Positions 12,769 through 63,790 are shown, numbered from the stretch's first letter. The stretch is 64,000 nucleotides of DNA from a virus (IMGVR_UViG_3300016471_001002:128001-192000); one strand, 5' to 3'. Numbers and translations: made by a program. The notes: generated by a model from the sequence alone, not told the origin.

Positions 12769-13068
12769 ATGAAGATATCAATCAATCAACTCCGCAGGAT
12801 TATCAAGGAAGAAGTTCAAACACTCACCGAGGCAGGAGATCCAAACAAAATCAAGTTTGAAGAAATCAAACAATCACTGGTTGATTTCCTCCAATCCAAC
12901 GGTGAACTGGTTTCAGGTGATGTTGTTCTACAAGGAAATACCATCAAGTTCCACATCTATGATCAAGATGCCCCAGATCTTCAATCACAACCCAGAGTTA
13001 AGATAACCCTGGAACTAGAACCCAGCATGGCACAACTTCGAGATGAAAATCCAGAGGTTTTCCTGTGA
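12769..13068 (+). CDS. MKIT-tag family protein
   Basis: MKISINQLRRIIKEEV; TATTTA 6 nt upstream of ATG. Confidence 0.7.
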   Translation: MKISINQLRRIIKEEVQTLTEAGDPNKIKFEEIKQSLVDFLQSNGELVSGDVVLQGNTIKFHIYDQDAPDLQSQPRVKITLELEPSMAQLRDENPEVFL

Positions 13069-13084
13069 GAATTAAAGGATAAAA

Positions 13085-13393
13085 ATGTCGGGAGGAGCCA
13101 TTCACCCACAATACCTGTACTACCAGGTGAACCAATTCGCGGATGAACTTGAGAACCGAATCGAAAACAACAATGTTCCGGATGAATACGGTTATGCCCC
13201 AAACCTCCCGGATGATATCCTCGATTACCTAAAACTCCAGGTTTCCAACCTAAGGAAAATCTCCGAGGTGATGAGAGCAACGGACTATTTATTTGCTGGT
13301 GACCATGGACCCGAAAATTTTCTAAAGATCATTGAGAAAATTGAAAAAAGTATTCAGGCTCTACATCAGGTATTTGACTCAATTTCCTGTTGA
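13085..13393 (+). CDS. conserved phage hypothetical (MSGG... family), putative target of endonuclease cassette 3
   Basis: 3' end overlaps endonuclease stop; tail homolog at 14438. Confidence 0.7.
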   Translation: MSGGAIHPQYLYYQVNQFADELENRIENNNVPDEYGYAPNLPDDILDYLKLQVSNLRKISEVMRATDYLFAGDHGPENFLKIIEKIEKSIQALHQVFDSISC

Positions 13394-14340
13394 AGTTTTT
13401 TTAACCTTCTGGTTTCCCACCCCTTTTTAAGTCTCTCGCTTCTTTGCTCGGGTGTGAGTTCAGCTAATTTCGATTTTATAGATTCACTTGTTTTTTTCTT
13501 ATGTTCAGGATCCTCCCACAATTTTTTTCTTATTTCGCTCATTTTTTCTCTATATTCAGGATCCTCCCACGATTTTTTTCTTATTTCACTCATTTTTTCT
13601 TTGAACTCAGGATCCTCCCATTTCTTTTTGTTGGCTTCGCTTTGTTTTCTTTTGTATTCAGGATCGTTTCGTATTTTTTTCATTTTGTGATCCGGATTTT
13701 CCCAGGATTTTCTAATAGATTCTTTATGCTTTTCCTTGATCTCAGGTTTTTTTAGAGAATCTTTGATAGCTTCGCTGTGCTTCTTTAATAATTCAGGATC
13801 TTCCCAAACTTTTTGTTGTTGTTCACTGCATTTTTTTCTGAGTTCAGGGTCACTCCAAGTTTTCTTAAATGATTCACTCATCCTTTCCTTGAATTCAGGA
13901 TTCTCCCATTTCTTTCTTTTTGTTGCCTTCATTCTTTCTTTTCTATCCTGGTTTTCCCAAGATTTTTTTTGTAATTCACTCATCCTTTCTTTGAACTCAG
14001 GATTTTCCCACTTCTTTTTACAGGCCTCTCTTTGTTCTTCGTTCCATTTGTAGCCTGTTGTTCCATCTCCGCCAAGGGTAAAATTGGCACCACCTTCACC
14101 AAAATCAACATGGGTTTTTAGTTCCTGGATAAGTTCGACTTCTTTATCAAATGCCTCTTGTTGATTGATGGTTTCAAATAGGACTTTCCTAACCATGCCA
14201 TGCTTATTTTTGATTTTGGCGTGAAGAGGATTTCTTTTTGATTTTCTCACTCTACAATCTACACCTTTTCCAACATAAAAAGGTCTTCCATCATCCTCTC
14301 GATAATCAACATAAACAAAGAATTTTTGTTCGGTTTCCAT
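13366..14340 (-). CDS. GIY-YIG-type homing endonuclease with helical repeats
   Basis: FFVYVDYREDDGRPFYVGKG; WEDPE repeats; ATATTTAT-N4-ATG start. Confidence 0.8.
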   Translation of the reverse strand: METEQKFFVYVDYREDDGRPFYVGKGVDCRVRKSKRNPLHAKIKNKHGMVRKVLFETINQQEAFDKEVELIQELKTHVDFGEGGANFTLGGDGTTGYKWNEEQREACKKKWENPEFKERMSELQKKSWENQDRKERMKATKRKKWENPEFKERMSESFKKTWSDPELRKKCSEQQQKVWEDPELLKKHSEAIKDSLKKPEIKEKHKESIRKSWENPDHKMKKIRNDPEYKRKQSEANKKKWEDPEFKEKMSEIRKKSWEDPEYREKMSEIRKKLWEDPEHKKKTSESIKSKLAELTPEQRSERLKKGWETRRLKKLQQEIESNT

Positions 14341-14437
14341 ATCCATAAATATGGAAAAAGATTATAAAAAGCCATATTTTTATATGGTTTCGTGTAAATT
14401 TTCAGATTTTTATATACTGTTTCTACTAATAAAAAGT

Positions 14438-14512
14438 ATGAAGAATATTTCTGGCGATCATAACGAGTTAAGCTTCATGAAAACCATCGGGAAAATCGAG
14501 GCTGAAAAATAA
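14438..14512 (+). pseudogene. 24-aa mini-ORF, displaced native 3' end of 13085 gene
   Basis: SGDHNELSFMKTIGKIE vs AGDHGPENFLKIIEKIE (9/17 identical). Confidence 0.65.
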
Positions 14513-14515
14513 ATC

Positions 14516-14731
14516 ATGGAACTCCGCATCGGTGATCAATGCTCAATTTGGAACGGAAATTCATCCATCTCAGATTCACGAAACTGGCTCATCGGCATCG
14601 TGATGAAAAAGAAGAACCACAAATACTGGAATGAAACTCGATACCAAGTTTTCTGGCACGATTTGTTAAAAGATACTACGTGGTACACTGCGAATGAGAT
14701 CAAATTAGATGAAACTCGGTTCTCTCGTTAA
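14516..14731 (+). CDS. small SH3/KOW-like protein
   Basis: LRIGDQC...IGIV...YQVFW. Confidence 0.7.
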   Translation: MELRIGDQCSIWNGNSSISDSRNWLIGIVMKKKNHKYWNETRYQVFWHDLLKDTTWYTANEIKLDETRFSR

Positions 14732-14900
14732 AATCCACCCAATCGATCATCTTTCACGTGAATTCCGCGGTGAACTTGGAACTCTATTAGATCTAGAGAT
14801 TCACAACTATCTCTCAGAGAAATTCTATTACGCAAAAGTGATGCTCCTCTCAGGGAAGATTATCTTCACCTCCCAAAATTCGCTGGAATTTATCAGTTAA
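14709..14900 (+). CDS. small SH3/KOW-like protein
   Basis: MKLGSLVKI...LGTLLD...AKVML. Confidence 0.7.
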   Translation: MKLGSLVKIHPIDHLSREFRGELGTLLDLEIHNYLSEKFYYAKVMLLSGKIIFTSQNSLEFIS

Positions 14901-14965
14901 AGGTAATAATTACCCCTATGAAGATCACAGTTTCACAACTCCGTAAAATCATCAAGGAAGAAGTT
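14862..14965 (+). repeat. ~104-bp imperfect direct repeat, copy 1 (copy 2 at 15305-15408)
   Basis: atcttcacctcccaaaattc...taataattacccctATGaagat...gaagaagt; offset 443. Confidence 0.85.
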
Positions 14966-15187
14966 TCTAGAATTATTGAAGAGAATATCAACATTGATCG
15001 AATGGTGCTTGATGAACACTATGAGGTTTATCAGGAAACCACTCGTAGTGGTGCAATACTCTACAAGGTGAAGTTCACTGCACCAAAGGATCTTCCACGT
15101 TTCATTTGGGTGAATCCAAATGGTTCCTGGATTGGCAGGAATTCTAAAATGCTAAACGATGATATCGTTGCGAGTGGAAATTTTTGA
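14918..15187 (+). CDS. MKIT-tag family protein
   Basis: MKITVSQLRKIIKEEV; TAATTA-N5-ATG. Confidence 0.75.
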   Translation: MKITVSQLRKIIKEEVSRIIEENINIDRMVLDEHYEVYQETTRSGAILYKVKFTAPKDLPRFIWVNPNGSWIGRNSKMLNDDIVASGNF

Positions 15188-15271
15188 AATATGATGAAGA
15201 TAGATTCCGTAATGCCATCCAAAAGATTGAAGGCAAACTAACCTTTTTAAGGGTGATGAATAATTAATCCC

Positions 15272-15343
15272 ATGAAACTCACAACGGCACAACTCAAACA
15301 AATCATCTTCACCTCCCAAAATTCTCTGGAATTTATCAATTAA
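15272..15343 (+). pseudogene. chimeric mini-ORF (tag fused to tail of 14709 gene)
   Basis: MKLTTAQLKQII+FTSQNSLEFIN*. Confidence 0.6.
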
Positions 15344-15408
15344 AGGTAATAATTACCCCTATGAAGATTACCGTATCGCAACTCCGTAAGATCATCCGTG
15401 AAGAAGTG
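15305..15408 (+). repeat. ~104-bp imperfect direct repeat, copy 2
   Basis: see copy 1. Confidence 0.85.
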
Positions 15409-16107
15409 CAGAGGAACATCTCTGAAGCCAAGTTCAACGTGGGTGATAAGGTAGAGGAAAAAGGAACCGATTCCGGTTGGTGGGAGGTTCTAGAATTAAT
15501 TCCCGATAATAGAACAGGTAAAACCGTTGCCAAATTACAAATGTTTCAACCTGTGGGTGGTAGAACACCAATCACACACGTAACAACGGATAAACTTGCT
15601 AAAGTTAGAGAATCTCTATCACATCCAGGTTCTTCACCCCTGAAGGATGGTGGTGTTGTTAACCGTGAATCCGGAGAGATTCTGGTTATGGATAGTGTTC
15701 CTCCTCAATACCTCGATCACATTGAGGTTGATGAGATGGGTTATACCACACTTCCAAATGATAAGTTTGAGGAACTTCGTGGTGAATTGAAGGGATTATC
15801 CGCAGGGAAACCAAAGAAACAACGATTAGCACCCTTCCAACTCAACAAGGGATCCAAGGGTTTCAATGATTACATCCGGGATGTTGATAGGGATATGCCA
15901 ACCTCATGGGATTCTCCAGATCCTCAGGATGTTCACGATGAATTTCTTAAGTTAAGGGATTATGATGGTGAAGTTCCACTCAAAATGCTAGCGGCCGGCT
16001 TAGGGGTAGAACCCAACCAAATCGATTGGAACGGAACCGGTTTAAGGGTGATGAACGGTGTTGTTACTGAACTCATCGGCGATACCCCCTACAGAACCAA
16101 TAGGTGA
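15361..16107 (+). CDS. MKIT-tag protein with KOW-like domain and possible C-terminal HTH
   Basis: MKITVSQLRKIIREEV; AKFNVGDKV; VPLKMLAAGLGVEP. Confidence 0.7.
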   Translation: MKITVSQLRKIIREEVQRNISEAKFNVGDKVEEKGTDSGWWEVLELIPDNRTGKTVAKLQMFQPVGGRTPITHVTTDKLAKVRESLSHPGSSPLKDGGVVNRESGEILVMDSVPPQYLDHIEVDEMGYTTLPNDKFEELRGELKGLSAGKPKKQRLAPFQLNKGSKGFNDYIRDVDRDMPTSWDSPDPQDVHDEFLKLRDYDGEVPLKMLAAGLGVEPNQIDWNGTGLRVMNGVVTELIGDTPYRTNR

Positions 16108-16119
16108 TCATCAGCACAA

Positions 16120-16150
16120 AAGGTAACCCACATTTAACTTTCGTGCAAAA
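16120..16150 (+). repeat. 31-bp direct repeat (second copy 16598-16628), overlaps -35 of promoter 16144-16172
   Basis: aaggtaacccacattta(a/c)ctttcgtgca(a/c)aa. Confidence 0.8.
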
Positions 16151-16178
16151 TACCTCATGGCGATGTTAAAATACCTCC

Positions 16179-16403
16179 ATGGCTCCACAACTCGGTGATC
16201 TAATCCACATCATAAAAGATACCCACGGCTACCCAGATAACTGGATCCGCGGCACAGATCCAATCAGATTCCCAAACGGCTCCACTGGCATCCTACTGGA
16301 TATCAAACCTTCATCCACAGATGAACCACGAACCTTCTACAAGGTTGCCACCCCACAAGGCACGGTATCCATCTTCGAAGGCTTCACAGAACTCATCAAA
16401 TAA
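16179..16403 (+). CDS. small SH3-like protein
   Basis: LGDLIHI...GILLD...YKVATPQG; after TGCAAA-N17-TAAAAT. Confidence 0.75.
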   Translation: MAPQLGDLIHIIKDTHGYPDNWIRGTDPIRFPNGSTGILLDIKPSSTDEPRTFYKVATPQGTVSIFEGFTELIK

Positions 16404-16415
16404 CGGATCAACACC

Positions 16416-16604
16416 ATGAACATCGGCGATCTTGTTCACGTAAGAAAATCTAACGTGTTTCACCAACTCGGCCTCGGGATCATCCTAGAACTTCACGCCG
16501 AACCCGATCGAACCTACTGCGATGTGTTCTTCCCAGACAGCGGAGAAACCTACGGGATCTTCGATAGAGATCTAGAAAAACTATCGGATCAACACGGAAG
16601 GTAA
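16416..16604 (+). CDS. small SH3/KOW-like protein
   Basis: MNIGDLVHV...GIILE...CDVFF. Confidence 0.75.
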   Translation: MNIGDLVHVRKSNVFHQLGLGIILELHAEPDRTYCDVFFPDSGETYGIFDRDLEKLSDQHGR

Positions 16605-16756
16605 CCCACATTTACCTTTCGTGCACAAAGAATAAACCACACCACTGCATCATACTGGATGCGGGGTTTTCGGAGGACGATGAGTACTTCTACCAGGTTC
16701 TCGCAGGTGAAAAGGTGGTTTGGATACGGGCAGAATACCTCACGGAGGTAAAGTGA
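16568..16756 (+). pseudogene. start-less SH3-like reading frame
   Basis: open frame KVTHIY...CIILD...YQVLAGEKVVWIRAEYLTEVK* with no ATG/GTG/TTG upstream of the domain. Confidence 0.45.
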
Positions 16757-17419: not shown

Positions 17420-17435
17420 AGATCAGACGGTGACC

Positions 17436-36896: not shown

Positions 36897-37076
36897 ATGA
36901 AGATAACTGTAAGACAATTACGAGAATTAATTAAAGAGGTCTTGGGACAAATTAATTATCCTCCCGGGCGTTATGAACCGTCCACCGGTGAACCAGTAGA
37001 CAACCCAGAAGAGTTATACTACGATGGATTTCCTGACGGAATTGAAGAAGAAGATTCTAAGGAAGATGAAACATGA
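36897..37076 (+). CDS. MKIT-tag acidic peptide (59 aa, not in ORF track)
   Basis: MKITVRQLRELIKEV; ATGA-coupled to 37073. Confidence 0.65.
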   Translation: MKITVRQLRELIKEVLGQINYPPGRYEPSTGEPVDNPEELYYDGFPDGIEEEDSKEDET

Positions 37077-37477
37077 AAATTACACCTGGAATTCTTAAAG
37101 AAATTATAGAAGAAGCTGTCATGCTTGAAGCCCTTGGCGTTTTAGATCAGTTTGAGCTTGATTTTGAAACTATTTCAGAAGAAGTTATCTTAGAAGCAGA
37201 GTATAAAGGTAGGGAAGTTTCTCTAGGAAAACCGATGCGTGGCGACGTAAAAAAATACAAAGTTTATGTCAAAGATGAAAAAACTGGTAATGTGAAAAAA
37301 GTCGAATTCGGAGATCCTAACATGGAAATTCGTAGAGATAATCCAAAGGCAAGAAAATCTTTTAGAGCCAGACATGGATGCGGTACTCCCAGAGCTTCAG
37401 ATAGAACAAAAGCAGCATATTGGTCATGCCGCATGTGGTCTACAAAACCTGTTTCTAAAATTCTTAAAGGAAAGTGA
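37073..37477 (+). CDS. MKIT-tag protein with conserved basic phage domain
   Basis: MKITPGILKEIIEEAV; EAEYKG..KPMR..FGDP..RKSFRARHGC..YWSCRMW. Confidence 0.75.
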   Translation: MKITPGILKEIIEEAVMLEALGVLDQFELDFETISEEVILEAEYKGREVSLGKPMRGDVKKYKVYVKDEKTGNVKKVEFGDPNMEIRRDNPKARKSFRARHGCGTPRASDRTKAAYWSCRMWSTKPVSKILKGK

Positions 37478-37563
37478 TTTAACTTTCTTAGTATAAACAT
37501 TCTTGATGTCGTGATATAATCGTTGATAACATCTTTCATTAGATGGTATCGAAAGGTTATAAA

Positions 37564-37833
37564 ATGTCAAAGAAAGTATTGTCAATTTTTTGTGTTGCGG
37601 CTTTTGTCTTCGGTTGCGAGGACAAGAAGTCAGAGACAGGGTCAACGTCCGCGAGCGTGACTGTCACTTCATCAGCTACTGGGGGTCAAGGAGGCTCAGG
37701 TGGTGAGGGTGGTCTTGGCGGCGCAGGAGGAGACGGTGGCTCTTCTGACTCAGCCGGCGGATCAAAGGGTACCGGTGGGCAAGGCGGATCTACTTCATCT
37801 GTCGGCGGCGCTGGCGGTCAAGGCGGAAACTGA
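37564..37833 (+). CDS. Gly/Ser-rich low-complexity lipoprotein
   Basis: lipobox VFGC; GGQGGSGGEGG repeats; TATAAA-N17-TATAAT upstream. Confidence 0.7.
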   Translation: MSKKVLSIFCVAAFVFGCEDKKSETGSTSASVTVTSSATGGQGGSGGEGGLGGAGGDGGSSDSAGGSKGTGGQGGSTSSVGGAGGQGGN

Positions 37834-37857
37834 TTTTTAATTTAGTTTATACGAATG

Positions 37858-37883
37858 AGGCTCTGGGAAACCAGGGCCTTTTT
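37858..37883. terminator. intrinsic terminator
   Basis: AGGCTCTGG-GAAA-CCAGGGCCT-TTTT. Confidence 0.75.
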
Positions 37884-38190
37884 ATTTTTGTATTAAGTTA
37901 ATTTCAGTAGGGCATCCTACATAAAAATCTGCGTGAGGATCGCATTGAAGAGGTATTTCTTTACTTATCAATTCTCCATCAGGTCCTTCAATTACGATCC
38001 ATTCTGATCCGCAATCCCAATAATTTTCATTTTCTTCAGGATAAGATTCGTTTGAATTAATCGATGGATATGGTCCGTATTCTTCTACGCCATCAACGTT
38101 TTGTGCAGCTTCATCAACTTTTTCTATTTTCATTGCGCACGATATTCCTACCAACAGCAATAAAAAACTAATAAGGTGATAGTTTTTCAT
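37882..38190 (-). CDS. putative lipoprotein
   Basis: signal peptide ending VGISC. Confidence 0.6.
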   Translation of the reverse strand: MKNYHLISFLLLLVGISCAMKIEKVDEAAQNVDGVEEYGPYPSINSNESYPEENENYWDCGSEWIVIEGPDGELISKEIPLQCDPHADFYVGCPTEINLIQK

Positions 38191-38219
38191 TAGTTCACAC
38201 CTTAAACATAAGTATTGTT

Positions 38220-38432
38220 ATGGACAAAGAAGAACTAACATTAAGAAAGTTAATCAGAGAATTTGTTAAAGCTCATGATATTAAATCAGGATCTCATCCT
38301 GAAGAAAGCTATGATAAAGAACTTTTAGATGACTCTTCTTTTAATGACGGAAGCGTGTACGTACCTGACGATATAAAAAAGAAAATCAAAAAATGGGCAA
38401 AAGACATGGGGCTCTCAACGAGCAAGAAATAA
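38220..38432 (+). CDS. tag-variant hypothetical protein
   Basis: LRKLIREFV. Confidence 0.6.
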   Translation: MDKEELTLRKLIREFVKAHDIKSGSHPEESYDKELLDDSSFNDGSVYVPDDIKKKIKKWAKDMGLSTSKK

Positions 38433-38439
38433 TTAGACC

Positions 38440-39327
38440 ATGCCTTATACGATAAGAAAACAAAAATGTAAGCAATCTGATGGTGATAGCGGTACGTACG
38501 TTTTGTCATACACGGACAAAAAAGGAAAAAAGCACCGTAATTGCCATACATCCAAAAAGAAAGCAAGAGGGCAGATTGCAGCAATTGAAGCAGAAAGCGT
38601 TGAGAGGAATGAAACCATGAAAATAAACTTGTCTGAATTACGCAAGTTGATTAGAGAAACAGTGACAACGTTAATGAGTCCCGAAGGAAAAGAAGCTGCA
38701 TTCAAGGCTGCTCCTACTTCAAGAGACGGAAAATTATTTCTCAGCAAAGACGGCTTGGAAGATCACATATTTGCAATTCAAGGTGGAATAGATGACATGG
38801 TTTTATATGATACCTTAGAAAACATGTTGAAGCGAGATGATAATCTTAGCGATGATCATCCCTTAAAACTAGATCCAGAATTTAGAAGATACATCGAAGA
38901 AAAAGTTACTGAATGGCATCTTATGGTCGATCCTGGAAGAGGAGAAAGTCCTGAAGATGAGCCAAAGTTGAAACAAATGATTGATGATACTCTTGATGGA
39001 TTATATGCAAAGAAAGCAGAAGATCCTTCAAAATACATTGCAGGATATAAATCTATGCAAGCACCCAAAGTTGATCCTTCAATGTATATGGCCAGAGGTG
39101 TTAAATCAGCCGCATCAAAATTTGGTGAATCTTCTGACATCAATAAATTAAAAAAAGTAATAAGAGAATTTATCCTTGATGAGTTAAAAGAAGAAGAAAA
39201 TAAAAAAGAAGACATGGATGGAGACGGTGACACCGATTCTGCAGATTATAAAATGAAAGTTTATATGGCAGGAGGAATAAAAAAAGACAAAGCTCTAAAA
39301 ATGTCCAGGAAATATGATAAAAAATAA
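38440..39327 (+). CDS. putative prohead-core/internal protein with two tag-like helices and DxDGDGD motif
   Basis: internal MKINLSELRKLIRETV (ATG 38617), LKKVIREFIL, DMDGDGDTD. Confidence 0.6.
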   Translation: MPYTIRKQKCKQSDGDSGTYVLSYTDKKGKKHRNCHTSKKKARGQIAAIEAESVERNETMKINLSELRKLIRETVTTLMSPEGKEAAFKAAPTSRDGKLFLSKDGLEDHIFAIQGGIDDMVLYDTLENMLKRDDNLSDDHPLKLDPEFRRYIEEKVTEWHLMVDPGRGESPEDEPKLKQMIDDTLDGLYAKKAEDPSKYIAGYKSMQAPKVDPSMYMARGVKSAASKFGESSDINKLKKVIREFILDELKEEENKKEDMDGDGDTDSADYKMKVYMAGGIKKDKALKMSRKYDKK

Positions 39328-39789: not shown

Positions 39790-41406
39790 ATGTCATCTGA
39801 ACAAGAGCAAAGTAATGTTGGGATTGTCTTTTCAAAAGACGCAAGAAAGAAGCTTTACAACGGTCTAAGATTAGCTGCTGAAGCCGTAAGCTGCACTTTA
39901 GGCCCGAATGGAAAAACAGTTTTAATTCAAAACGGTAATAATTCTCCAATCATAACCAAAGACGGAGTAACTGTAAGCAAATCAATCAAGCTTCCAGATC
40001 CTTTGGAAATGATGGGAGCCCAGCTGCTAAGAGAAGCTGCTTCTCAAACCAACGATGTCGCTGGAGATGGAACGACAACATCGACTGTTTTAACTCATGC
40101 TTTGGTAAAAGAAGGCGTCAAATTACTTGATGCTGGATACAATTCAAAAAAGCTTTGTGAAGGATTTGATCTAGCTTCCAAGACTATTACGAGCTTTCTG
40201 TCGATGATGTCTACTCCGGTTGAATCATCAGAAAAAATAAAACAAATCGGAACGATTAGCGCAAACGGTGATGAAAAAATTGGTGAAATCATTGCTGCAG
40301 CGATGGATAAGGTTGGAAAAGATGGAATCATAACAGTTGAAGACGCAAAAGGAACTGCAACTAGCTTTGATGTTGTCGACGGCATGCAATTTGACAGAGG
40401 ATATCTTTCTCCTTACTTCGTTACAAATAACGAAAAAATGCATTCAATGTATAATGATGCATACGTTTTAGTTACAGACAAGAAGATTTCTACGATAAAG
40501 GAAATTCTTCAAATTCTTGAAAGAATTGTTGAAGTAAGAAAACCTCTGTTGATCGTCGCAGATGATGTTGAAGGAGAAGCTTTACAGGGGTTGGTTTTAA
40601 ATAGAGTTAAAACTCAATTACAGGTTGTTGCAATCAAAGCACCTGGATTTGGCCCATCAAGAACCGACTATTTGAATGATATTTGCGTTCTAACCGGTGC
40701 TACATTAATTTCAAGCATTAATGGAATCACTTTAGACAAAGCTACGTTGAATGAGCTTGGTAAAACAAAGAAGATTGTAGTAGATGCAAAATCTACGACC
40801 ATTGTTGGAACAGAATCTTCTCAAGAAAAAGTAAGTTCACATGTAGAAGATTTGAGAACACGAGCTACTGACATTACGTTGGGTCATGAAGAATTGTCTG
40901 CATTAAAAATGAGAATTGCAAGATTATCTTCGGGTGTTGCAATCATTAAGGTTGGAGGTGCAACTGAAATTGAAATGATCGAACGAAAGTACAGAATAGA
41001 AGATGCCCTTCATGCAACTCGAGCTGCAGCAGAAGATGGAATCGTTCCCGGAGGAGGTTCAGCATTGTTCTATGCTGCAGAAGAATCAAAAGCTGTTCTT
41101 CTTAGTGCAGATCATGATAGAGATGTCCTTGCAGGAATTGAGGTCGTTCTAAAAGCTTGCAAGGCTCCGTTGAGAAGAATCGTAGAAAATTCAGATAAAT
41201 CATCTGACGTTGTTGAAGATGAAATGCTAAGAAATAAGGGTCAAAAATTAGGATATGATGCATCAACTGGAAGGTTTATCGATTTAATTGCAGCAGGTAT
41301 AATTGATCCAGCCAAAGTGACAAAAACGGCCCTAAAAAATTCAACTTCTGTAGCAAAGTTGTTTATGACTTTGGACGCCGTCGTTTTAAATGACTCCAAG
41401 GTATAA
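39790..41406 (+). CDS. groL: chaperonin GroEL homolog
   Basis: TLGPNG, TKDGVTV, GDGTTT, GMQFDRGYLSPYF, KAPGFG, GIIDPAKV; lacks GGM tail. Confidence 0.95.
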   Translation: MSSEQEQSNVGIVFSKDARKKLYNGLRLAAEAVSCTLGPNGKTVLIQNGNNSPIITKDGVTVSKSIKLPDPLEMMGAQLLREAASQTNDVAGDGTTTSTVLTHALVKEGVKLLDAGYNSKKLCEGFDLASKTITSFLSMMSTPVESSEKIKQIGTISANGDEKIGEIIAAAMDKVGKDGIITVEDAKGTATSFDVVDGMQFDRGYLSPYFVTNNEKMHSMYNDAYVLVTDKKISTIKEILQILERIVEVRKPLLIVADDVEGEALQGLVLNRVKTQLQVVAIKAPGFGPSRTDYLNDICVLTGATLISSINGITLDKATLNELGKTKKIVVDAKSTTIVGTESSQEKVSSHVEDLRTRATDITLGHEELSALKMRIARLSSGVAIIKVGGATEIEMIERKYRIEDALHATRAAAEDGIVPGGGSALFYAAEESKAVLLSADHDRDVLAGIEVVLKACKAPLRRIVENSDKSSDVVEDEMLRNKGQKLGYDASTGRFIDLIAAGIIDPAKVTKTALKNSTSVAKLFMTLDAVVLNDSKV

Positions 41407-41616: not shown

Positions 41617-42023
41617 TGATTGAAAATAGTTCTTCATATTCAATTTCAGGAAATTGTGAATTTGATCTTCCGAATTTCATGAATACGATTGAATCGTTTT
41701 ATGATGATGGATCAATTTCTATCGTTTCTTGTGGCATTCATCCAAAAACAAAAGAGCTGATCATTTTAACATCTAGTTGTATATTAAAAGAATTAAATCT
41801 AGATCATTTCTTTCATTCTAAAAAAAATATTCTAAATGTCTATCCAATTCATAATGGATCAATTTTAGAATTTATTTTTGATGATATGATCGTCACTGTT
41901 GATGCGGAAGATATTTTAAGTTTATCGAAAGAATTACAACTCATGAACCTCGAAATAGGTATGAATCATGAAGATAACAATGTTGGCCCTGAGAAAAATG
42001 ATCAGGGAAGAAATGGAACGTAA
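41616..42023 (+). CDS. hypothetical protein
   Basis: coupled ORF. Confidence 0.5.
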   Translation: MIENSSSYSISGNCEFDLPNFMNTIESFYDDGSISIVSCGIHPKTKELIILTSSCILKELNLDHFFHSKKNILNVYPIHNGSILEFIFDDMIVTVDAEDILSLSKELQLMNLEIGMNHEDNNVGPEKNDQGRNGT

Positions 42024-42183
42024 TCTTAGATGGACTGCAGGAATTGCAATGAATGGTGCTAGGTTAAGTCAACCAGGCAGAGGCATAACATACGGAGTTC
42101 CACCAGGACTTGGAAAAGATTCTGGTGATGAAATTGAAGAAAAGGAGAATGAAGAGTTAGTTTATGAAGAAGAATCGTCATGA
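41968..42183 (+). CDS. MKIT-tag family protein
   Basis: MKITMLALRKMIREEM. Confidence 0.7.
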   Translation: MKITMLALRKMIREEMERNLRWTAGIAMNGARLSQPGRGITYGVPPGLGKDSGDEIEEKENEELVYEEESS

Positions 42184-42184
42184 T

Positions 42185-42403
42185 ATGAATGATCGCGAAG
42201 ATAGAATGGAATTAATCGGTAAAGTAGTTGAGTCGCTTCCTGGAACGTTGTTTGAAGTTAAAACTACAACAGGACAAACTGTTTTAGCAACATTATCAGG
42301 TAAGATGAGACAAAACCACATTATGGTTTTGCCCGGCGATGAGGTTATCATTGAGGTGTCGCCTTACGATACTACGCGGGGACGCATTATGCGGCGAAGA
42401 TGA
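42185..42403 (+). CDS. infA: translation initiation factor IF-1
   Basis: GKVVESLPG..F.V...VLATLSGKMRQNHIMVLPGDEV..EVSPYD..RGRI. Confidence 0.92.
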   Translation: MNDREDRMELIGKVVESLPGTLFEVKTTTGQTVLATLSGKMRQNHIMVLPGDEVIIEVSPYDTTRGRIMRRR

Positions 42404-42597
42404 TACCTACAACATACTTAATAATATAAAAAAACAAAAAAGAGGAGAACTAAAATGTTCCAAAATTGGATTGAACAACATCCTTACATTTTTGCGTTTT
42501 TAGTTTTTTATGGAATTACATCAATATGTCATTCGGTAGTAAAGACCTCAGCATATAAATACAATAAAAACTTTCATGAATAAGATAGTTAATCTTG

Positions 42598-42912
42598 ATG
42601 AATAGCTCAAAAGATTTTATCTTAAGACATTATATACGTTGCATTTTGCAAGAAGCATATTATAGCAACGTAGATGGTCCTCATCTAACAAATTTAATGT
42701 CTCCTCATCTTTCTCAAAGAGATGAAATTCCTTATTTAGGAAAGAAGAGAAAAAAAGAAGAAGATGAAATTTCAGCTCATTTAATGGAACCAGAGTTTGA
42801 CATGGAAGATTGCTATGGACCGGTTCCTCCACTTGCTCAAGAGCCAGGGGTGTTCATCGATCCGTACACACAAAATTGGCATGTTACTCCTAAAGCCGAC
42901 CATCGTAGATAA
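42598..42912 (+). CDS. tag-variant hypothetical protein
   Basis: ILRHYIRCILQEA; TAGTTA-N6-ATG. Confidence 0.6.
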   Translation: MNSSKDFILRHYIRCILQEAYYSNVDGPHLTNLMSPHLSQRDEIPYLGKKRKKEEDEISAHLMEPEFDMEDCYGPVPPLAQEPGVFIDPYTQNWHVTPKADHRR

Positions 42913-49249: not shown

Positions 49250-49627
49250 ATGAGCAAAATTGATCCAAAAATCGTTGTTTTAAGACAGCTGATAAGAGAA
49301 ATTATTGAATCTTCTTTATTAAACGAAGATAGCACACCAGGCGGAGGATTGACTGATTTTGGCGCAAAATTTAGAATTGAAAAATCCGGAGCAATTTCGG
49401 ATGCAATGAAAGCTTTAGCTGCAACCGGTGGAGATGCTACTAAAGCAGCAAAATCTTTAGGAGTCAGTACAAGAAGAATGTACGATTACATCTCTATGTC
49501 GCCGAAGCTCGACACAGCTCAAGATAAATTTCAAGATGAAGAAAGAAAAGAAAAAGAGACAGAAAAAAGATTATCCAAAGATAAAGATTCTGATGATGAC
49601 GAATCTTTAGAAGATGAAAAATTATAG
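49250..49627 (+). CDS. tag-variant protein with Fis-type HTH
   Basis: LRQLIREIIE..LLNE; ALAATGGDATKAAKSLGVSTRRMY. Confidence 0.7.
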   Translation: MSKIDPKIVVLRQLIREIIESSLLNEDSTPGGGLTDFGAKFRIEKSGAISDAMKALAATGGDATKAAKSLGVSTRRMYDYISMSPKLDTAQDKFQDEERKEKETEKRLSKDKDSDDDESLEDEKL

Positions 49628-50358: not shown

Positions 50359-51093
50359 TTATTGATTTTGTTTATATAGTTCTCTGAACTTCTTTGTTGT
50401 GATTCCGTAATCCAACAAAACCAGGCATCCTTCATCTGTAATTCCCCAAGAAGACAACTTCGCAAGATCCCCTGGTAACATGTCTTTGTACCTTTCCATG
50501 AAGGAAGAAATTGCAGATAAAAAGTCATTGCCGGTCATGCAGTTTTCTCTTCCCACGGGTTGAACTCGTTGTGCAACCCCAGGTTTTTGTCCTCCCACAG
50601 GTGCAGTGGCATCATATTCTGATCTTGCAGATAGTCCCATCATTTTTCTTACTTCATTCCACGGAACTCCTATAATTTTTTCCGCTTTAGAAACTTCTGC
50701 ATCATGAAGAGGGATGACTTTTTTTGAAACGACCCAATAAAATTCTGGATCATAATCTAATACTCCAGAAATGATCGATTCTACTTGAGGATCTCTTCCC
50801 GCCGTGACTTCAAGTTCATTTTGTGCCAGACCTTTTTCATCTCTAGCCAATTTAACTACTGAATTTCCGTCAAGCTCAAACACTAATCGTGAACTTCCTT
50901 CTCCGATTTGCTTTAATCCAAATTTGCTCAATGCTTTAAGCATTGCCTCAAAAGGAGTTTTTGATTCCCATTCTTCTGGGCTTTGGTATGCAGCAGTTAT
51001 CCAATCAAGCGGATCAGAAGACGTTTCAACGTCTTCCATCGCTATTTCATTGATCAATTCTCTGATATAAGCTTTCAATAAATTTTTTTTCAT
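50359..51093 (-). CDS. tag-variant protein kinase-like protein
   Basis: IGEGSSRLV, VVKLA, QNELE, GDL, LVLLDYG. Confidence 0.75.
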   Translation of the reverse strand: MKKNLLKAYIRELINEIAMEDVETSSDPLDWITAAYQSPEEWESKTPFEAMLKALSKFGLKQIGEGSSRLVFELDGNSVVKLARDEKGLAQNELEVTAGRDPQVESIISGVLDYDPEFYWVVSKKVIPLHDAEVSKAEKIIGVPWNEVRKMMGLSARSEYDATAPVGGQKPGVAQRVQPVGRENCMTGNDFLSAISSFMERYKDMLPGDLAKLSSWGITDEGCLVLLDYGITTKKFRELYKQNQ

Positions 51094-51119: not shown

Positions 51120-51341
51120 ATGAAAATTAAATTAAATGAGCTTAGAAAAATTATTAGAGAAATAATTGAAGAAGATTCCATTGATCAAGGACATGAACAA
51201 TCAGGAGATCCCGAATTGGTCCAATTAAACCACCAAGGTGACGGAAGCGAATACGATCAAATGGGAAATGAGGAAAATAATCAATCATTCGTTTCTACAC
51301 TCTTAAGCCAGATGAACTTATCAAAAGCTCCCTTTTCGTGA
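51120..51341 (+). CDS. MKIT-tag acidic peptide
   Basis: MKIKLNELRKIIREIIEE. Confidence 0.65.
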   Translation: MKIKLNELRKIIREIIEEDSIDQGHEQSGDPELVQLNHQGDGSEYDQMGNEENNQSFVSTLLSQMNLSKAPFS

Positions 51342-56288: not shown

Positions 56289-56753
56289 TCAAGTTCCTAG
56301 CGAACCGCCTTTTCCGCCTAAAAACTCAACCGGTTGACCTGTACGAGTATCAATCACTTGACTTCTTGAACGGCCATACTGAACGTCACGTTCAGATGTT
56401 ACATCTGCTTCTTTGAAGAATCCTTTCAGTTTTTCGTAATCGTTGTGCATTTCTTCAACTTGATCACGGTTCACATCCATGTTGAAATACATGTCTATGT
56501 AATTTGGCATCGCTTTTGGAGCTTTTTCCTTGACTGCATCAAAAAAACGATAGTAGTCGCCTTGAGCTTCTTCTTTTAACGCATCGATGTTTGGAATTTT
56601 TGATACAAGCTGTAACCAAAGACCAAGATGCTTTTGCCCTTCTTTGAACTTTGCATAATCTTTTGCGGATTGTTCTGGCGTTACATTTTCAGAAATAACT
56701 CTAGAAACTTCTTCTTTAATGATGCTACGTAATTGTCCGACAGTAATCTTCAT
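56289..56753 (-). CDS. MKIT-tag family protein
   Basis: MKITVGQLRSIIKEEVSRVISEN; TAGTTA-N6-ATG. Confidence 0.75.
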   Translation of the reverse strand: MKITVGQLRSIIKEEVSRVISENVTPEQSAKDYAKFKEGQKHLGLWLQLVSKIPNIDALKEEAQGDYYRFFDAVKEKAPKAMPNYIDMYFNMDVNRDQVEEMHNDYEKLKGFFKEADVTSERDVQYGRSRSQVIDTRTGQPVEFLGGKGGSLGT

Positions 56754-58876: not shown

Positions 58877-58903
58877 GTTGATCTCCTTAATTCGATGTTG
58901 AAC

Positions 58904-58978: not shown

Positions 58979-58990
58979 ATTGATATTGTT

Positions 58991-59019: not shown

Positions 59020-59023
59020 CGCT

Positions 59024-59695: not shown

Positions 59696-59953
59696 GTAAA
59701 TAACTATTGGGCTCCAACAAATCGAACCTACAAACAATCGGTTATTTTCTAAAACTTTTTTTCATCGTGCGATATATTGATATCATGCCGAGAAACAAAA
59801 AGACAGCATCGTTAAAAGCCGGGATAACCTTTCTTAGTTTCTTATCCCAACTTGCTTCAATTCAAGAAGATAAAGGGAAAAAGAAAGAAATCGATAACAC
59901 AAACAGGTTATTAAAAGCCCTAAGATATCTTCTAGGAATTGAAAGATAAACTG

Positions 59954-60190
59954 TCAATCCTCTGATGCTCGTCTTGATGCATGGATAAAAGAAATTACCA
60001 TTGCGCAGATGATATGCCATCCTAAAGAGGATCGACTAAAACTAGCCCATGGCCAATTAAAAGCCGCACCCAAAATCCAAAAACCTATTCCAAAAAATAA
60101 TCCTGCAAGAGGTGCAGTGCATCCATAAACTAATACCTTAGGATAAAACACTATCATGCAGACAACAAAAATAATCCACAAAATAGGCAT
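59954..60190 (-). CDS. small membrane protein
   Basis: three hydrophobic segments. Confidence 0.6.
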   Translation of the reverse strand: MPILWIIFVVCMIVFYPKVLVYGCTAPLAGLFFGIGFWILGAAFNWPWASFSRSSLGWHIICAMVISFIHASRRASED

Positions 60191-60210
60191 ATTGTTTTCC
60201 TAACAATATT

Positions 60211-60408
60211 TCAAAACTTTTTTTCAATTACCGTAAGAGTGTCTGGATCAACAAAATCGAAGACTTTAGGATCACCCACCTTACAAATACGAGCCTGAAT
60301 GACGTCGAGCTCATAGTTCTTGGCAATCTTTGTGATCATCCACGATCCTTCAAATCCATCGCGGGTGACAAAATCTCCTGTGATTACTCGCTTCTTCTTC
60401 TTTTCCAT
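60211..60408 (-). CDS. small KOW-like protein
   Basis: ITGDFVT; TGTAAA-N17-TATGTT promoter at 60416-60444. Confidence 0.6.
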   Translation of the reverse strand: MEKKKKRVITGDFVTRDGFEGSWMITKIAKNYELDVIQARICKVGDPKVFDFVDPDTLTVIEKKF

Positions 60409-60452
60409 GTTCCCCAACATACCACCTTGTCTATCTACTTTACACAACTTTG

Positions 60453-60526
60453 TGGGCCATCCCCGTCCTGCCCGGGGGACCTCCACTTTATCAGAGTGGC
60501 TATCTAACTAACTGATATAATGGCCC
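60453..60526 (-). tRNA. tRNA-Ile(GAU), non-canonical elbow
   Basis: GGGCCAT/ATGGCCC, TATC/GATA, CCACT-CTGATAA-AGTGG, CCCCG-GGCAGGA-CGGGG; no CCA. Confidence 0.85.
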
Positions 60527-60546
60527 TTGTATTCTTACGTTTTATC

Positions 60547-60623
60547 TGGCGGGATAGATGGGGTTCGAACCCACGACCTTCGCAGTGACAGTGCGATATT
60601 CTAACCAACTGAACTACTATCCC
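60547..60623 (-). tRNA. tRNA-Asp(GUC)
   Basis: canonical cloverleaf, G73, CCA. Confidence 0.92.
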
Positions 60624-61429
60624 AGTCTTGATATATATTTCTCATTCCACCATTTAATCTTTTCTTGTAACTGTTCAAGCGTCATTCCACATTTTTTGCC
60701 TTTGGACACATTTAAGTTGTGAACCATTAATCTACAATTTGCTGGATGAGAAATTATGCTTGGGTCTATGTTGTTTTCAAATCCATATTTTACGGATATG
60801 ATGTGATCTCTTGAAACACCGTCGAGATTATTTCCGCGATTTTTTGCAGAATACCAACCATACTTTTCTATCAAAGTAAAGTCGAATTCTTCGGGATAAT
60901 CGGCTAAATTAAACTTAAAACAACAAAGAGTTCTATAATATTTTAGTCCTGCTTTGTCAAGAAGCGGGTATCGAATCTTCGTGCTGCATTCAACTGAACA
61001 ACATTTTTGATGAGGATGCTTTGAACTAACAACAAATCCGTTATTACATCCTTGACAAATTTTCGTGATTCTTTCAGAGATTATTCTTCCAGAAAGTTTC
61101 TTTCTTACTTTTTCTTTAAAGACTTCTGATCTAGGTCCTCTACTGTTTGCACAAGACCTTGAGCAGAAATAAATGTCTCTTTCTGGATGTCTCTTTTCTC
61201 TTTCTTTAACAAAGAAGTGAACATAACAACGTTCACATGTCACATCATATTCTCTTACTTCTCCAAATTCATTTTTATAACGTTCAATGGTTTTTTGAGA
61301 ACACTTTGATGCGCCCTTGTCACCGTTTGTAAGGTTTTTATCACACCATCTTACATGATTTGCAAACACTTTTCCTTCCTCGTTTGGAAAAAAAGTGTTG
61401 CAGTACTTACACGTTCTATCTTGTCTCAT
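60617..61429 (-). CDS. Zn-finger HNH homing endonuclease
   Basis: multiple CxxC; RDHII...ANC...N.SK; TACTTA-N5-ATG. Confidence 0.8.
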   Translation of the reverse strand: MRQDRTCKYCNTFFPNEEGKVFANHVRWCDKNLTNGDKGASKCSQKTIERYKNEFGEVREYDVTCERCYVHFFVKEREKRHPERDIYFCSRSCANSRGPRSEVFKEKVRKKLSGRIISERITKICQGCNNGFVVSSKHPHQKCCSVECSTKIRYPLLDKAGLKYYRTLCCFKFNLADYPEEFDFTLIEKYGWYSAKNRGNNLDGVSRDHIISVKYGFENNIDPSIISHPANCRLMVHNLNVSKGKKCGMTLEQLQEKIKWWNEKYISRLG

Positions 61430-61473
61430 ACTAATAAGTATGGACCTGCTTTTAATCGAACCTGTTTTATTTG

Positions 61474-61545
61474 TGGAGAATCCCGGCTACGCTCCGGGCA
61501 CTGCTGCGTGCAAGGCAACTGTTTTCCTGAATAAACTAATTCCCC
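61474..61545 (-). tRNA. tRNA-Ala(UGC), non-canonical elbow
   Basis: G3-U70, A73, loop CTTGCAC, T-loop AGCGTAG; no CCA. Confidence 0.85.
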
Positions 61546-61595
61546 GATGAACTACCGGCCCTAACTCTAATAAGTATTAGTCACTTTGCGTTTTG

Positions 61596-61678
61596 TGGAA
61601 CGGGACAGATTCGAACTGCCGTAGACATACGCCAACGCGTTTACAGCGCGTCCCCTTTAGCCACTCGGGCACCGTTCC
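61596..61678 (-). tRNA. tRNA-Tyr(GUA)
   Basis: class II cloverleaf, loop CTGTAAA; no CCA. Confidence 0.9.
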
Positions 61679-61679
61679 G

Positions 61680-61755
61680 TGGAGCCACCTGCCGGAATTG
61701 CACCAGCGACCGGGACTTTACAAGGGTCCTGCTCTGCTAACTGAGCTAAGGTGGC
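61680..61755 (-). tRNA. tRNA-Thr(UGU), non-canonical elbow
   Basis: GCCACCT/AGGTGGC, loop CTTGTAA, T-loop TGCAATT, CCA. Confidence 0.87.
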
Positions 61756-61768
61756 GTAATCTATGTTG

Positions 61769-61963
61769 TCAAGGTGGTAAAATTGTTTGTCCGTCAGAGG
61801 GAGGAATTTGTTTCCATTCCTCACAATTTTCAATGTAAAGATATCTTTCTTGAACTTTTTGTATACATTGCGCAGAAGGATGTTTGATTTTTTTTTGCTT
61901 TTTAGTTGGAAAGCAAGCGCACGTTAGAGCGAGTGCATATAATAATAAAGCTTTTTTTAACAT
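61769..61963 (-). CDS. small putative lipoprotein
   Basis: signal peptide ending TCAC. Confidence 0.55.
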   Translation of the reverse strand: MLKKALLLYALALTCACFPTKKQKKIKHPSAQCIQKVQERYLYIENCEEWKQIPPSDGQTILPP

Positions 61964-62175
61964 TGCTCTCCAAATAGCACGTTAAACTCATCCTCGTACA
62001 TTTTAGAGACTCTGCCCATAAAATCTACTGATTCGATCGTGTCCATTACAATTGATTCATCTCCAATGAACATCTTGATTCGACCGCGGCTGGATACATA
62101 CACACGCAAATTATCCTTGGAGTATGAAAACTTCCAAGTCTCGGCACGATCAAGAAGAGATACGACGTTATTCAT
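61957..62175 (-). CDS. hypothetical protein
   Basis: TGTAAA-N17-TATATT promoter at 62183-62211. Confidence 0.65.
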   Translation of the reverse strand: MNNVVSLLDRAETWKFSYSKDNLRVYVSSRGRIKMFIGDESIVMDTIESVDFMGRVSKMYEDEFNVLFGEQC

Positions 62176-62213
62176 GGTTCTTAATATAAAACAATCAAGT
62201 TAAAGTTTACACT

Positions 62214-62290
62214 TGGTGACCCTACTGGGTGCTGCCCCCAGTTTTTCGCCTTGAAAGGGCGACGACTTAGCTGACGTGGTCGATAGGGCC
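62214..62290 (-). tRNA. tRNA-Glu(UUC), non-canonical elbow
   Basis: GGCCCTA/TAGGGTC, TCGCC-CTTTCAA-GGCGA, CTGGG-GGCAGCA-CCCAG, CCA. Confidence 0.85.
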
Positions 62291-62291
62291 A

Positions 62292-62365
62292 TGGTTGGGG
62301 AACTAGGATTCGAACCTAGATAAAGAGATTCAAAGTCTCTTGTCCTGCCTTTGAACGATTCCCCA
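62292..62365 (-). tRNA. tRNA-Gln(UUG)
   Basis: U1-A72, loop CTTTGAA, TTCGAAT, CCA. Confidence 0.9.
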
Positions 62366-62366
62366 G

Positions 62367-62453
62367 CGGAGAGACAGGGATTCGAACCCTGGGTACCCGT
62401 TAAGATACACAGCATTTCCAATGCTGCTCCATCGGCCTCTCGGACATCTCTCC
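62367..62453 (-). tRNA. tRNA-Ser(GGA)
   Basis: long variable arm, G73, loop TTGGAAA. Confidence 0.9.
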
Positions 62454-62460
62454 AATTTTG

Positions 62461-62539
62461 AGCGGGTGGACGGACTCGAACCGACGATGCTTTCGCGGGA
62501 GGTTGGAAACCTCCTGCCATACCACTAGGCGACACCCGC
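62461..62539 (-). tRNA. tRNA-Gly(UCC) with 12-nt variable region
   Basis: GCGGGTG/CACCCGC, U73, loop TTTCCAA, variable CGCGAAAGCATC. Confidence 0.85.
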
Positions 62540-62616
62540 AAGATTAAGTTATCAACTTATCGATTATATTGTTAAAGACATGAAATGTATTCGTCAACGT
62601 TGAAATTTTAAAAACA

Positions 62617-62988
62617 TTAAATCTTACATGAATCATCGCAACGACCGGTCCACTTCAGCCGATTTTTTGCGAAGATTTTATATCCCCAATCAAGAAGATG
62701 AGAGATTCCTGGCCAACGAGTTACTTTAACAATCCAGCCAAATCCCACTGCTGTATAGAGATGACGGAAAACTTCTACGCCTTCGATCATTGTTCCGTCA
62801 GGGAGTTTACCATTGATTTTGTCCATCAACGCTTGCCATTCGGGAGTTCCTCGTTTATCGTAAAAATCCTGACCAGCAATGTCAGTGAACTTGATCTTGC
62901 TCTTCTTGTCCAACCTTCGCAGCATGTTGATTTCACGGATGCAAAGAGGGCAATCACCATCAAAAAAAACTTCTATATCCCAAGTCAT
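62617..62988 (-). CDS. DCC1-like thiol-disulfide oxidoreductase (DUF393)
   Basis: [14 protein letters not shown]...GVEVF...Y...FAKNR. Confidence 0.85.
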
Positions 62989-63028
62989 GTTTTATTATAC
63001 ACAAATATAAATATCGAATTGAGGATTT

Positions 63029-63790
63029 TCATTCTCTTATTAAACCATTGTCGATGATAATCTTCACGATTTCTTTCGATATAGCCGTGTCAGAAGGATA
63101 ATGAATGCCGACCAACTCTCTACTTCTGGCTATCTTGTCTCCTAGAGCATACAATTCAATTGCAGCATCAGGATACTTCCTGGCATAATATTCGCTCATC
63201 ATGAAACCTGCCATAGCATGACCGCCTGGGTAAGACGCTGACATCGCATCTGTACGCATCAATGGATACAAGGCAAGGCCATAAGACTTGGCTAACTGAT
63301 ATGGTCTTGGACGATTAATGATGTCTTTTAAGTGATAGAGAAGCCCTTCATTCTGGGTCTCGATCTCGAAGAATCTACCCATGTCCTCTTCATGTCCTTT
63401 TTCTGACAACAGGTCGATAAAAGTCTGCGCCAAATTACTCAAATCATCGACGTAACGAGCAAAGGTAATGTCTTCAGACGTCGCTGAATTCACTAATTCC
63501 AAAAGAATGTTTAAATCTTCTCTTGTCGTTTCGCTGTCGTTTGCCGGTGCCGATCGACAAATTTCATCTACCAATCCGTGGTTAATGAACCAGTTCTTGA
63601 TAAAATCTTCAGTGTTTTTGGCAATCTTGTGAAACTCCAGCGGAGGATTTCCGTAATTTACGACGTCGACGTCGCCGACGGGTTCGGCAGGCAAAGTTTT
63701 AGCAACAAAACCTTCGTCAGGCGTGAGGGCCGGCCTCAGCTCGACCTCCTCCCGGATCAACTTCCTCAATTCACTCAATCGTATCTTCAT
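63029..63790 (-). CDS. MKIT-tagged PAP2 family phosphatase/haloperoxidase-like protein
   Basis: MKIRLSELRKLIREEV; K..INRPRP, SYPGGH, SRELVGIHYPSD; TATTTA-N6-ATG. Confidence 0.82.
   Translation of the reverse strand: MKIRLSELRKLIREEVELRPALTPDEGFVAKTLPAEPVGDVDVVNYGNPPLEFHKIAKNTEDFIKNWFINHGLVDEICRSAPANDSETTREDLNILLELVNSATSEDITFARYVDDLSNLAQTFIDLLSEKGHEEDMGRFFEIETQNEGLLYHLKDIINRPRPYQLAKSYGLALYPLMRTDAMSASYPGGHAMAGFMMSEYYARKYPDAAIELYALGDKIARSRELVGIHYPSDTAISKEIVKIIIDNGLIRE

Follow-up and report, generated by a model that had tools for sequence, protein, structure and literature searches.

Why should about 25 genes of one virus, coding for otherwise unrelated proteins, begin with the same short peptide or a variant of it? 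The question is raised by a 64,000-nucleotide stretch of DNA (the window), which comprises bases 128001-192000 of IMGVR_UViG_3300016471_001002, a 211,097-bp IMG/VR virus record with 40% G+C and an estimated completeness of ~65%. An earlier interpretation, made from the DNA without database searches (the sequence-only reading), noted an N-terminal tag on 15 open reading frames (ORFs) starting between positions 12769 and 63790. It proposed that the tag is a swappable address label that loads a cocktail of enzymes into the phage head. Below, "window" coordinates count from the start of the window and "genome" coordinates from the start of the record. Our analysis suggests that the tag is probably a lineage-specific capsid-targeting propeptide, a longer version of the head-loading signal of phage T4; we hold this reading, which draws on sequence comparison and analogy, with somewhat better than even confidence.

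A Conserved Tag on Unrelated Proteins

The tag spans 16 residues with the consensus M-K-I/L-T-x-x-x-L-R/K-x-I-I-R/K-E-E-V. As the sequence-only reading had suggested, we built a hidden Markov model (HMM) of it, trained on 14 N-termini, and searched it against the ORFs of the 211-kb genome. Fourteen ORFs score 24.7-37.7 bits, a fifteenth scores 18.8 bits and about eight weaker variants rank below, whereas the best score per codon-shuffled genome is only 6.4-12.6 bits (n = 10 shuffles). The strong matches all begin on a methionine, 1-80 codons past an in-frame stop. A loose core motif also falls preferentially at the start of genes (18 of 31 occurrences within the first 20 residues of called genes, 3.1 expected), and it thereby recovers divergent variants, such as the one starting at window 51093(-), that the HMM misses.

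All 15 starts reported earlier are present in the window, although they differ in strength: eleven are strong (counting the truncated remnant at 15272), two moderate (38220, 49250) and two weak (42598, 51093(-)). The moderate variants retain an L-R-x-L-I-R-E core behind a longer N-terminus. Further copies lie outside the window, at genome 10563, 16267, 66624, 69565, 73648, 90920 and 192493. The Leu, Arg and Ile codons vary freely among copies, so the conservation is at the level of the peptide. Are the proteins behind the tag related to each other? When the first 22 residues are removed from 24 tagged proteins, an all-against-all BLASTP comparison returns a single marginal pair (E = 0.006), which upholds the claim of unrelated downstream parts.

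We computed a logo from 72 unique tags, which belong to this genome and to relatives. M at position 1 and L at position 8 are invariant (100%), and five further positions are nearly so: K at 2 (94%), R/K at 9 (98%), I/L at 11 (95%), I at 12 (97%) and E at 14 (98%). The remaining positions are looser: I 60% or L 33% at 3, T 66% at 4, K 47% or R 30% at 10, a variable R, K, E, A or S at 13, E 78% at 15, and V 51%, I 20% or L 14% at 16. In an AlphaFold model of the 295-aa (amino acid) ORF 38440, based on a 40-sequence alignment, the tag region (residues 64-79) is helical with a predicted local distance difference test score (pLDDT) of about 80. Judged from the spacing of hydrophobic residues, the helix would be amphipathic.

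The tag ends in a glutamate motif. At tag positions 11-15 the density of [LI]xE is 0.32, compared with a genome background of 0.012. The sequence-only reading had placed the cleavage sites downstream of the tag. Such sites are indeed present (a second [LI]xE at residues 15-25 has a density of 0.054, a 4.6-fold enrichment) and may serve as back-up, but the pattern of conservation marks the near-invariant I12-x-E14 inside the tag as the most likely cut site. The 30 residues that follow the tag are rich in Asp, Glu and Ala.

A Tagged Gene in the Head Module

The virus is an uncultured freshwater jumbo phage and a distant member of the T4 superfamily. Its gp23-type major capsid protein (genome 13426-15315; Pfam Gp23, 214 bits) has ~30% identity to T4 gp23 in the aligned regions and 36-47% identity to the proteins of Microcystis phage Mel-JY01 and the Flavobacterium immuto phages; at least 598 relatives are found in IMG/VR. 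A Peptidase_S77 prohead protease is encoded at genome 9043-9675 (96 bits; phrog_207, 177 bits). The head module runs in the order terminase, a 582-aa portal-sized ORF (placed by position only), a 285-aa ORF and the protease, followed by ORFs of 137, 139, 100 and 164 aa, a 651-aa scaffold-like protein (genome 11418-13373) and the capsid protein. Two tagged ORFs, at genome 10089 (MGITKGQLKAIVKECLVEILAEG) and 10563 (MKLTSTVLKRIIAEEV, 100 aa), lie between the protease and scaffold-like genes, and a third, at genome 16267, lies shortly downstream of the capsid gene.

Is this arrangement kept in other phages? In 37 of 48 related loci spanning the region, an orthologous tagged ORF precedes the capsid gene by 2.3-3.4 kb. 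The consensus of its tag is MKLT..LLK.IIEEEVAKFGDMED, and the synteny persists in relatives down to ~65% capsid identity. Save for this one conserved gene, relatives show no excess of tags within 10 kb of the capsid gene compared with the genome as a whole. The T4 counterpart of the cluster codes for prohead components only, and gp67 and gp68, small core proteins of T4, are substrates of the protease gp21 (PMC9026906). To judge from these gene orders, head-module synteny is the best discriminator of a capsid role from other roles of a docking helix. The tag itself is found in five of five large related records, with 2-16 matches each; the 16 are in a complete 298-kb genome with terminal repeats.

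We also observe an ORF (genome 15419-16234, +) for a TnsA-like or restriction-fold endonuclease with a zinc-finger-like N-terminus, placed after the capsid gene and before the tagged ORF at genome 16267. At the corresponding place, after gene 23, T4 carries segD.

Proteins behind the Tag

What do the tagged genes encode? The clearest enzyme in the window is a 253-aa PAP2-family phosphatase (63029..63790, -; HMM 27.8 bits). It scores 30.7 bits against Pfam PAP2, above the 27.2-bit gathering cut-off, and all three motifs of the class (KX6RP, PSGH, SRX5HX3D) are intact, as KDIINRPRP, PGGH and SRELVGIHYPSD; the phosphatase named in the sequence-only reading is thus confirmed.

A second enzyme begins 493 bases past the end of the window. 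The 217-aa tagged protein at genome 191840-192493 (-; locus L009) has no sequence match in Pfam or the PDB. Its AlphaFold model (pLDDT 70, core residues above 80) has an ADP-ribosyltransferase (ART) fold: nearly all of the top 50 VIA-align matches are ARTs (Z 8.4-4.2), among them Vis, Arr, TreX, pertussis-like toxins, C3 and iota-like enzymes, and Foldseek matches are weak (E ≥ 0.038). Across nine homologues, R95, S136-S137-W-T139 and E195-x-E197 are invariant. Fold and catalytic residues both place the protein with the R-S-E mono-ADP-ribosyltransferases (Alt/ModA/ModB, C3, Vis class). Homologues on other contigs carry the same tag and an extra 130-residue segment before the catalytic domain that is missing here, which indicates a modular build.

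The other domain assignments of the sequence-only reading fare less well. The kinase-like 244-aa ORF (50359..51093, -; phrog_4301) begins with a shortened variant (MKKNLLKAYIRELINE) that has no HMM match and fits the core as L-K-A-Y-I-R-E, two residues shorter. Its proposed kinase fold is a lead only, with an Atlas T7-kinase family score of 0.94 and kinase/APH folds at TM 0.41-0.48. The 125-aa ORF at 49250..49627 (+; 10.4 bits), whose variant is N-terminally extended (…VVLRQLIREIIE), has a Fis-type helix-turn-helix (HTH) match that is weak (HTH_8, 19 bits) and below the cut-off. The claimed KOW/SH3 domain finds no confirmation in Pfam. The 248-aa ORF at 15361..16107 (+; 36.3 bits) matches nothing in Pfam or PHROG, and a relative's homologue lacks its SH3-like insert.

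The remaining tagged ORFs of the window are mostly small. Two with high scores are those of 99 aa (12769..13068, +; MKISINQLRRIIKEEV..., 32.8 bits, with a GATATTTA box ending 6 nucleotides (nt) before the ATG) and 89 aa (14918..15187, +; 37.7 bits). Next come a 59-aa ORF with an acidic tail (36897..37076, +; 30.0 bits; net charge of the mature part -12) and a 134-aa ORF with a basic C-terminal domain (37073..37477, +; 26.5 bits; phrog_7595), then a 70-aa ORF with a variant tag (MDKEELTLRKLIREFV; 38220..38432, +; 11.9 bits). Farther along are a 71-aa ORF with an acidic tail (41968..42183, +; 27.6 bits), a 104-aa ORF with a very weak variant (…FILRHYIRCILQE; 42598..42912, +), which has no HMM match and whose membership is uncertain, an acidic 73-aa ORF (51120..51341, +; 24.7 bits) and a 154-aa ORF (56289..56753, -; 34.5 bits) with a TATAGTTA box ending 6 nt before its ATG. 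The idea of an enzyme cocktail therefore needs qualification: some cargoes are enzyme-like, but many are small acidic or low-complexity peptides, several of them acidic peptides of 59-73 aa.

Size is a common property of the cargoes. Only one of 76 tagged proteins is longer than 350 aa, compared with 12% of all genes (binomial p = 6e-4, with orthologues that are not independent samples). A small size would suit passage through the portal. Among relatives we also observe a tagged DnaJ (J-domain) protein with a WGR domain (L064:10663-11760) and a tagged HAD-like (DUF2608) protein (L110:14-922).

Internal Tags and the MPY Domain

The tag had been described as an N-terminal label. This holds for the strong matches that begin on Met near a stop codon, but the tag also occurs internally. 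In the 295-aa ORF at 38440..39327 (+), a full tag (29.5 bits) starts at the ATG at 38617, following a basic 59-aa domain (window 38440-38616) that we call MPY, and a 308-aa protein of a relative (L104:143-1066) has two tags about 85 residues apart. Since it can be internal or doubled, the tag is better described as a cleavable docking helix than as a strictly N-terminal signal.

The MPY domain has the highly conserved 50-aa consensus MPYxIRKQKCKQSDGDxGSYVLSYTDKKGKKHRACHTSKKKAxGQIAAIE, with C10, C35 and H36 invariant. It is single-copy in this genome and heads at least 175 metagenomic phage proteins. In these a tag or tag-like helix follows 4-18 residues on, and then 100-450 unrelated residues. 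Where MPY proteins have lost Met1 of the tag, L, I, V or T stands in its place, which implies that Met1 doubles as a hydrophobic helix residue and as the initiator. For the MPY domain AlphaFold2 predicts a fold of three strands plus one helix (pLDDT above 90), to which the PDB offers no clear structural match (best Z 5.6), and we find no MPY domain among 50,697 GenBank phage records. The domain is both widespread and undescribed. It is tempting to speculate, if only tentatively, that tag and MPY together may define a modular, cleavable loading system in large groups of uncultured T4-related phages from fresh and marine waters; we would put this well short of an even chance.

Duplication of a Promoter and Tag

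How might so many unrelated genes have acquired one tag? A 106-nt direct repeat, with 90% identity between its copies, occurs at window 14859-14964 and 15302-15407 (+). It contains the last codons of the upstream ORF, a TAATAATTA box and 16 tag codons, and the genes that follow the two copies are unrelated. Promoter and tag have been duplicated together, so the tag can move between genes, in agreement with the swappable label of the sequence-only reading. Between the two genes lies a 23-aa ORF (15272..15343, +; HMM 10.7 bits), a truncated remnant in which the first 12 residues of the tag (MKLTTAQLKQII) are joined to a copy of the C-terminal tail of the upstream ORF (FTSQNSLEFIN). From its composition we take this ORF to be a recombination scar, formed at the ATC-ATC codons of the tag.

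A TANNTA element had been reported before most of the starts. The element is real for about nine of the 15, in the form (G)TATAnTTA ending 5-7 nt before the ATG. Genome-wide, 16 ORFs have this box at that distance and no Shine-Dalgarno sequence, compared with 0-2 in shuffles. The box lacks the GTGCAAAGT element found in early-looking cassette promoters at genome 197-211 kb. Besides tagged genes, it heads ORFs at window 24716(-), 26400(+), 3151(-), 8449(-), 54368(-) and 56236(-). The genes headed by it include a 1741-aa ORF adjoining a homologue of a virion structural protein and two GIY-YIG-like ORFs (MEI..FYVYVD..PFYVGKG).

As a separate observation on repeats in this part of the window, a 326-aa ORF (window 13366-14346, -) contains a tandem repeat of 17 codons at window 13430-14036, made of six overlapping 166-nt units at 51-nt spacing with 61-73% identity.

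A Probable Capsid-Targeting Propeptide and Its Alternatives

In T4, gp21 cleaves at L/I-X-E, and the propeptides of the internal proteins (IPs), 10-19 N-terminal residues long, are capsid targeting sequences (CTSs), in which the N-terminal part provides targeting and residues 8 and 10 provide processing (PMC9026906). By analogy, residues 1-16 of the tag would form an amphipathic helix, with M1, V5, L8, I11/I12 and V16 on its hydrophobic face, that docks the protein to the scaffolding core while the prohead assembles. The Peptidase_S77 protease would then cut after I12-x-E14, and often at a second [LI]-x-E a few residues on, releasing the cargo within the head. The ART, the PAP2 phosphatase, the kinase-like protein and the relative's J-domain protein might enter the cell along with the DNA, while the small acidic cargoes may be prohead-core filler, degraded or expelled rather than injected. 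New cargo genes would arise when the promoter-plus-tag cassette recombines ahead of other ORFs. The capsid-loading proposal of the sequence-only reading has gained support from the S77 protease, the gp23-type capsid protein, the synteny in 37 of 48 loci, the tagged ART and the duplication; binding to the core, cleavage, packaging and injection of the tagged proteins are steps that we infer.

Several observations weigh against this reading. The tag HMM has no match in the cultured phages T4 and RB43, scores at most 0 bits on the N-termini of T4 gp24, Alt and gp22, and matches Mel-JY01 and the immuto phages only weakly and in part; by these comparisons the tag is specific to this clade, and no cultured phage carries it. 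The N-terminus of the phage's own capsid protein (MKQFTLDQLAQGIRE), which we considered as a tag-like sequence, is striking by eye but reaches only 0.9 bits, and in relatives a D frequently replaces its E. Glu follows the proposed cut in most tags (78%), which is atypical of known T4 sites. The net charge of the cargoes is the same as the genome background, whereas the T4 IPs are basic, and the internal copies depart from a classical N-terminal CTS. Finally, the -10-only box of the tagged genes also precedes homing-endonuclease-like and metabolic-looking genes, and a single-sequence search found no homologue of T4 gp55. The box on these genes and the missing gp55 match undercut an argument from late promoters that the absent GTGCAAAGT element and the 1741-aa ORF had suggested, and we do not use it.

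Could the tag instead be a helix that docks elsewhere than on the capsid and gathers many proteins into one complex of phage or host, for instance on a scaffold, at a membrane site or at the replication/transcription machinery? An amphipathic helix on proteins as varied as HTH-like, kinase-like and J-domain proteins would fit such a role, and the internal copies behave as modules. Yet the near-invariant I-x-E motif would be left without explanation, as would the ceiling on cargo size and the fact that, in 37 of 48 loci, a tagged gene stands between those for the prohead protease and the scaffold. We regard this alternative as unlikely, even though it survives best.

A processing or degradation signal without packaging is rather less probable still. 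Here Peptidase_S77 or a host AAA+ protease would activate the tagged proteins, or limit their lifetime, in the cytoplasm. The tag ends in a conserved protease-type motif, as such a signal might, and N-termini of the type M-basic-hydrophobic look like one class of the N-terminal motifs that ClpX recognizes. However, internal copies, which have no free N-terminus, retain the full motif, and the tagged protein of the head module points to a part in assembly. In addition, the prohead proteases of the T4 family work inside proheads (PMC9026906).

The phage also encodes its own GroEL (window 39790-41406, +; phrog_5725, E = 1e-150), and tagged ORFs flank this gene on both sides (36897-38617 and 41968-42598). 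Might the tag target proteins to the chaperonin? There is a precedent, in that the N-terminus of T4 gp23 sends fusion proteins to GroEL (PMC3012670). But most tagged genes lie far from groEL, acidic peptides of 59-73 aa are hardly in need of a chaperonin, the capsid protein N-terminus is itself unlike the tag, and the I-x-E motif is again unexplained. We consider chaperonin targeting very improbable. Each of these three alternatives leaves the I-x-E motif, the head-module gene or both unexplained.

Two further ideas we reject as barely credible. A leader for a modifying enzyme, as in ribosomally synthesized and post-translationally modified peptides, with for example a radical SAM maturase, is contradicted by the lack of any Radical_SAM (PF04055) match in this genome or in relatives G001-G003, including the complete 298-kb genome with 16 tags. 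A nucleic-acid feature, whether an enhancer of leaderless-mRNA translation or a recombination handle for cassette shuffling, would account for the -10 box 5-7 nt before the ATG, without a Shine-Dalgarno sequence, in about nine tagged genes and for recombination at the tag in the 106-nt repeat, but not for the free variation of synonymous codons, the internal copies, or the relatives, in which a Shine-Dalgarno sequence precedes 28 of 42 tagged genes and the leaderless box just five.

If the capsid-targeting reading is right, a sequence profile would list the proteins sent into the host with the DNA across a large clade of uncultured freshwater phages. Because such proteins would act ahead of any phage gene expression, they would be foremost among candidates for roles in anti-defence and host takeover. 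The CTS principle of T4 would then be ancient and shared widely across the T4 superfamily, each lineage having peptides of its own, and the tag could provide a second, longer label for packaging foreign proteins in phage heads. Should the more speculative system of tag and MPY also prove real, the injected protein set of each phage could be read from its sequence: here the ART, a soluble PAP2 phosphatase and a T7-kinase-like enzyme, and in relatives J-domain and HAD-like proteins as well. Proteins with two tags, or with MPY and a tag, would in that case be small polyproteins cut apart in the head.

Comparison with Known Systems

How does the tag compare with the CTS of T4? The principle is known from T4; what is new is this tag, the large size of its repertoire, the position it takes in the head module and the link with MPY. 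In both phages a short peptide at the extreme N-terminus is common to otherwise unrelated, mostly small, dispensable-looking proteins (the exceptions here being the internal copy at window 38617 and L104). Both peptides have an M-K/x start and an [L/I]-x-E end (T4 gp24 MAKINELLRE, Alt MELITELFDE; NC_000866), and both phages have a protease of the gp21 family (Peptidase_S77) with T4-type prohead genes, including a gp23 capsid protein. An ADP-ribosyltransferase is among the cargo in each case, T4 Alt being packaged and processed by gp21 (PMC9026906), and each phage has duplicated first parts of tagged genes (alt.-1/alt.-2 in T4). The resemblance is in kind only, as we find no sequence similarity to the T4 CTS (MKTYQEFIAE class): the tag here has 14-16 residues of another sequence. 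Its carriers are spread genome-wide on both strands, whereas T4 has a handful; they show no bias towards basic proteins, and the tag stands on a conserved head-module protein and is sometimes internal.

The polymorphic ip loci of the T-even phages offer a second comparison. There, too, a conserved leader precedes diverse mature parts with a fast turnover (PMC9026906, PMC3012670), and both sets can be read as an arms-race toolkit that arrives with the DNA. The repertoire here is far larger and is not confined to one locus, and its owners form an uncultured freshwater clade with a capsid protein of only ~30% identity to T4 gp23.

Among jumbo phages, phiKZ, 201phi2-1 and SPN3US have inner-body or ejection proteins whose propeptides are cut at S/A-X-E by a diverged gp21 homologue (PMC9026906). 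These phages likewise have many head-internal proteins processed after Glu and redundant propeptide sites (PMC9026906), features that our phage would share. Their propeptides are long and do not form one common short tag, whereas here we find a clear Peptidase_S77 match and an I-x-E motif. An A-X-E site of the phiKZ type would nevertheless fit the invariant A-I-E that closes the MPY domain.

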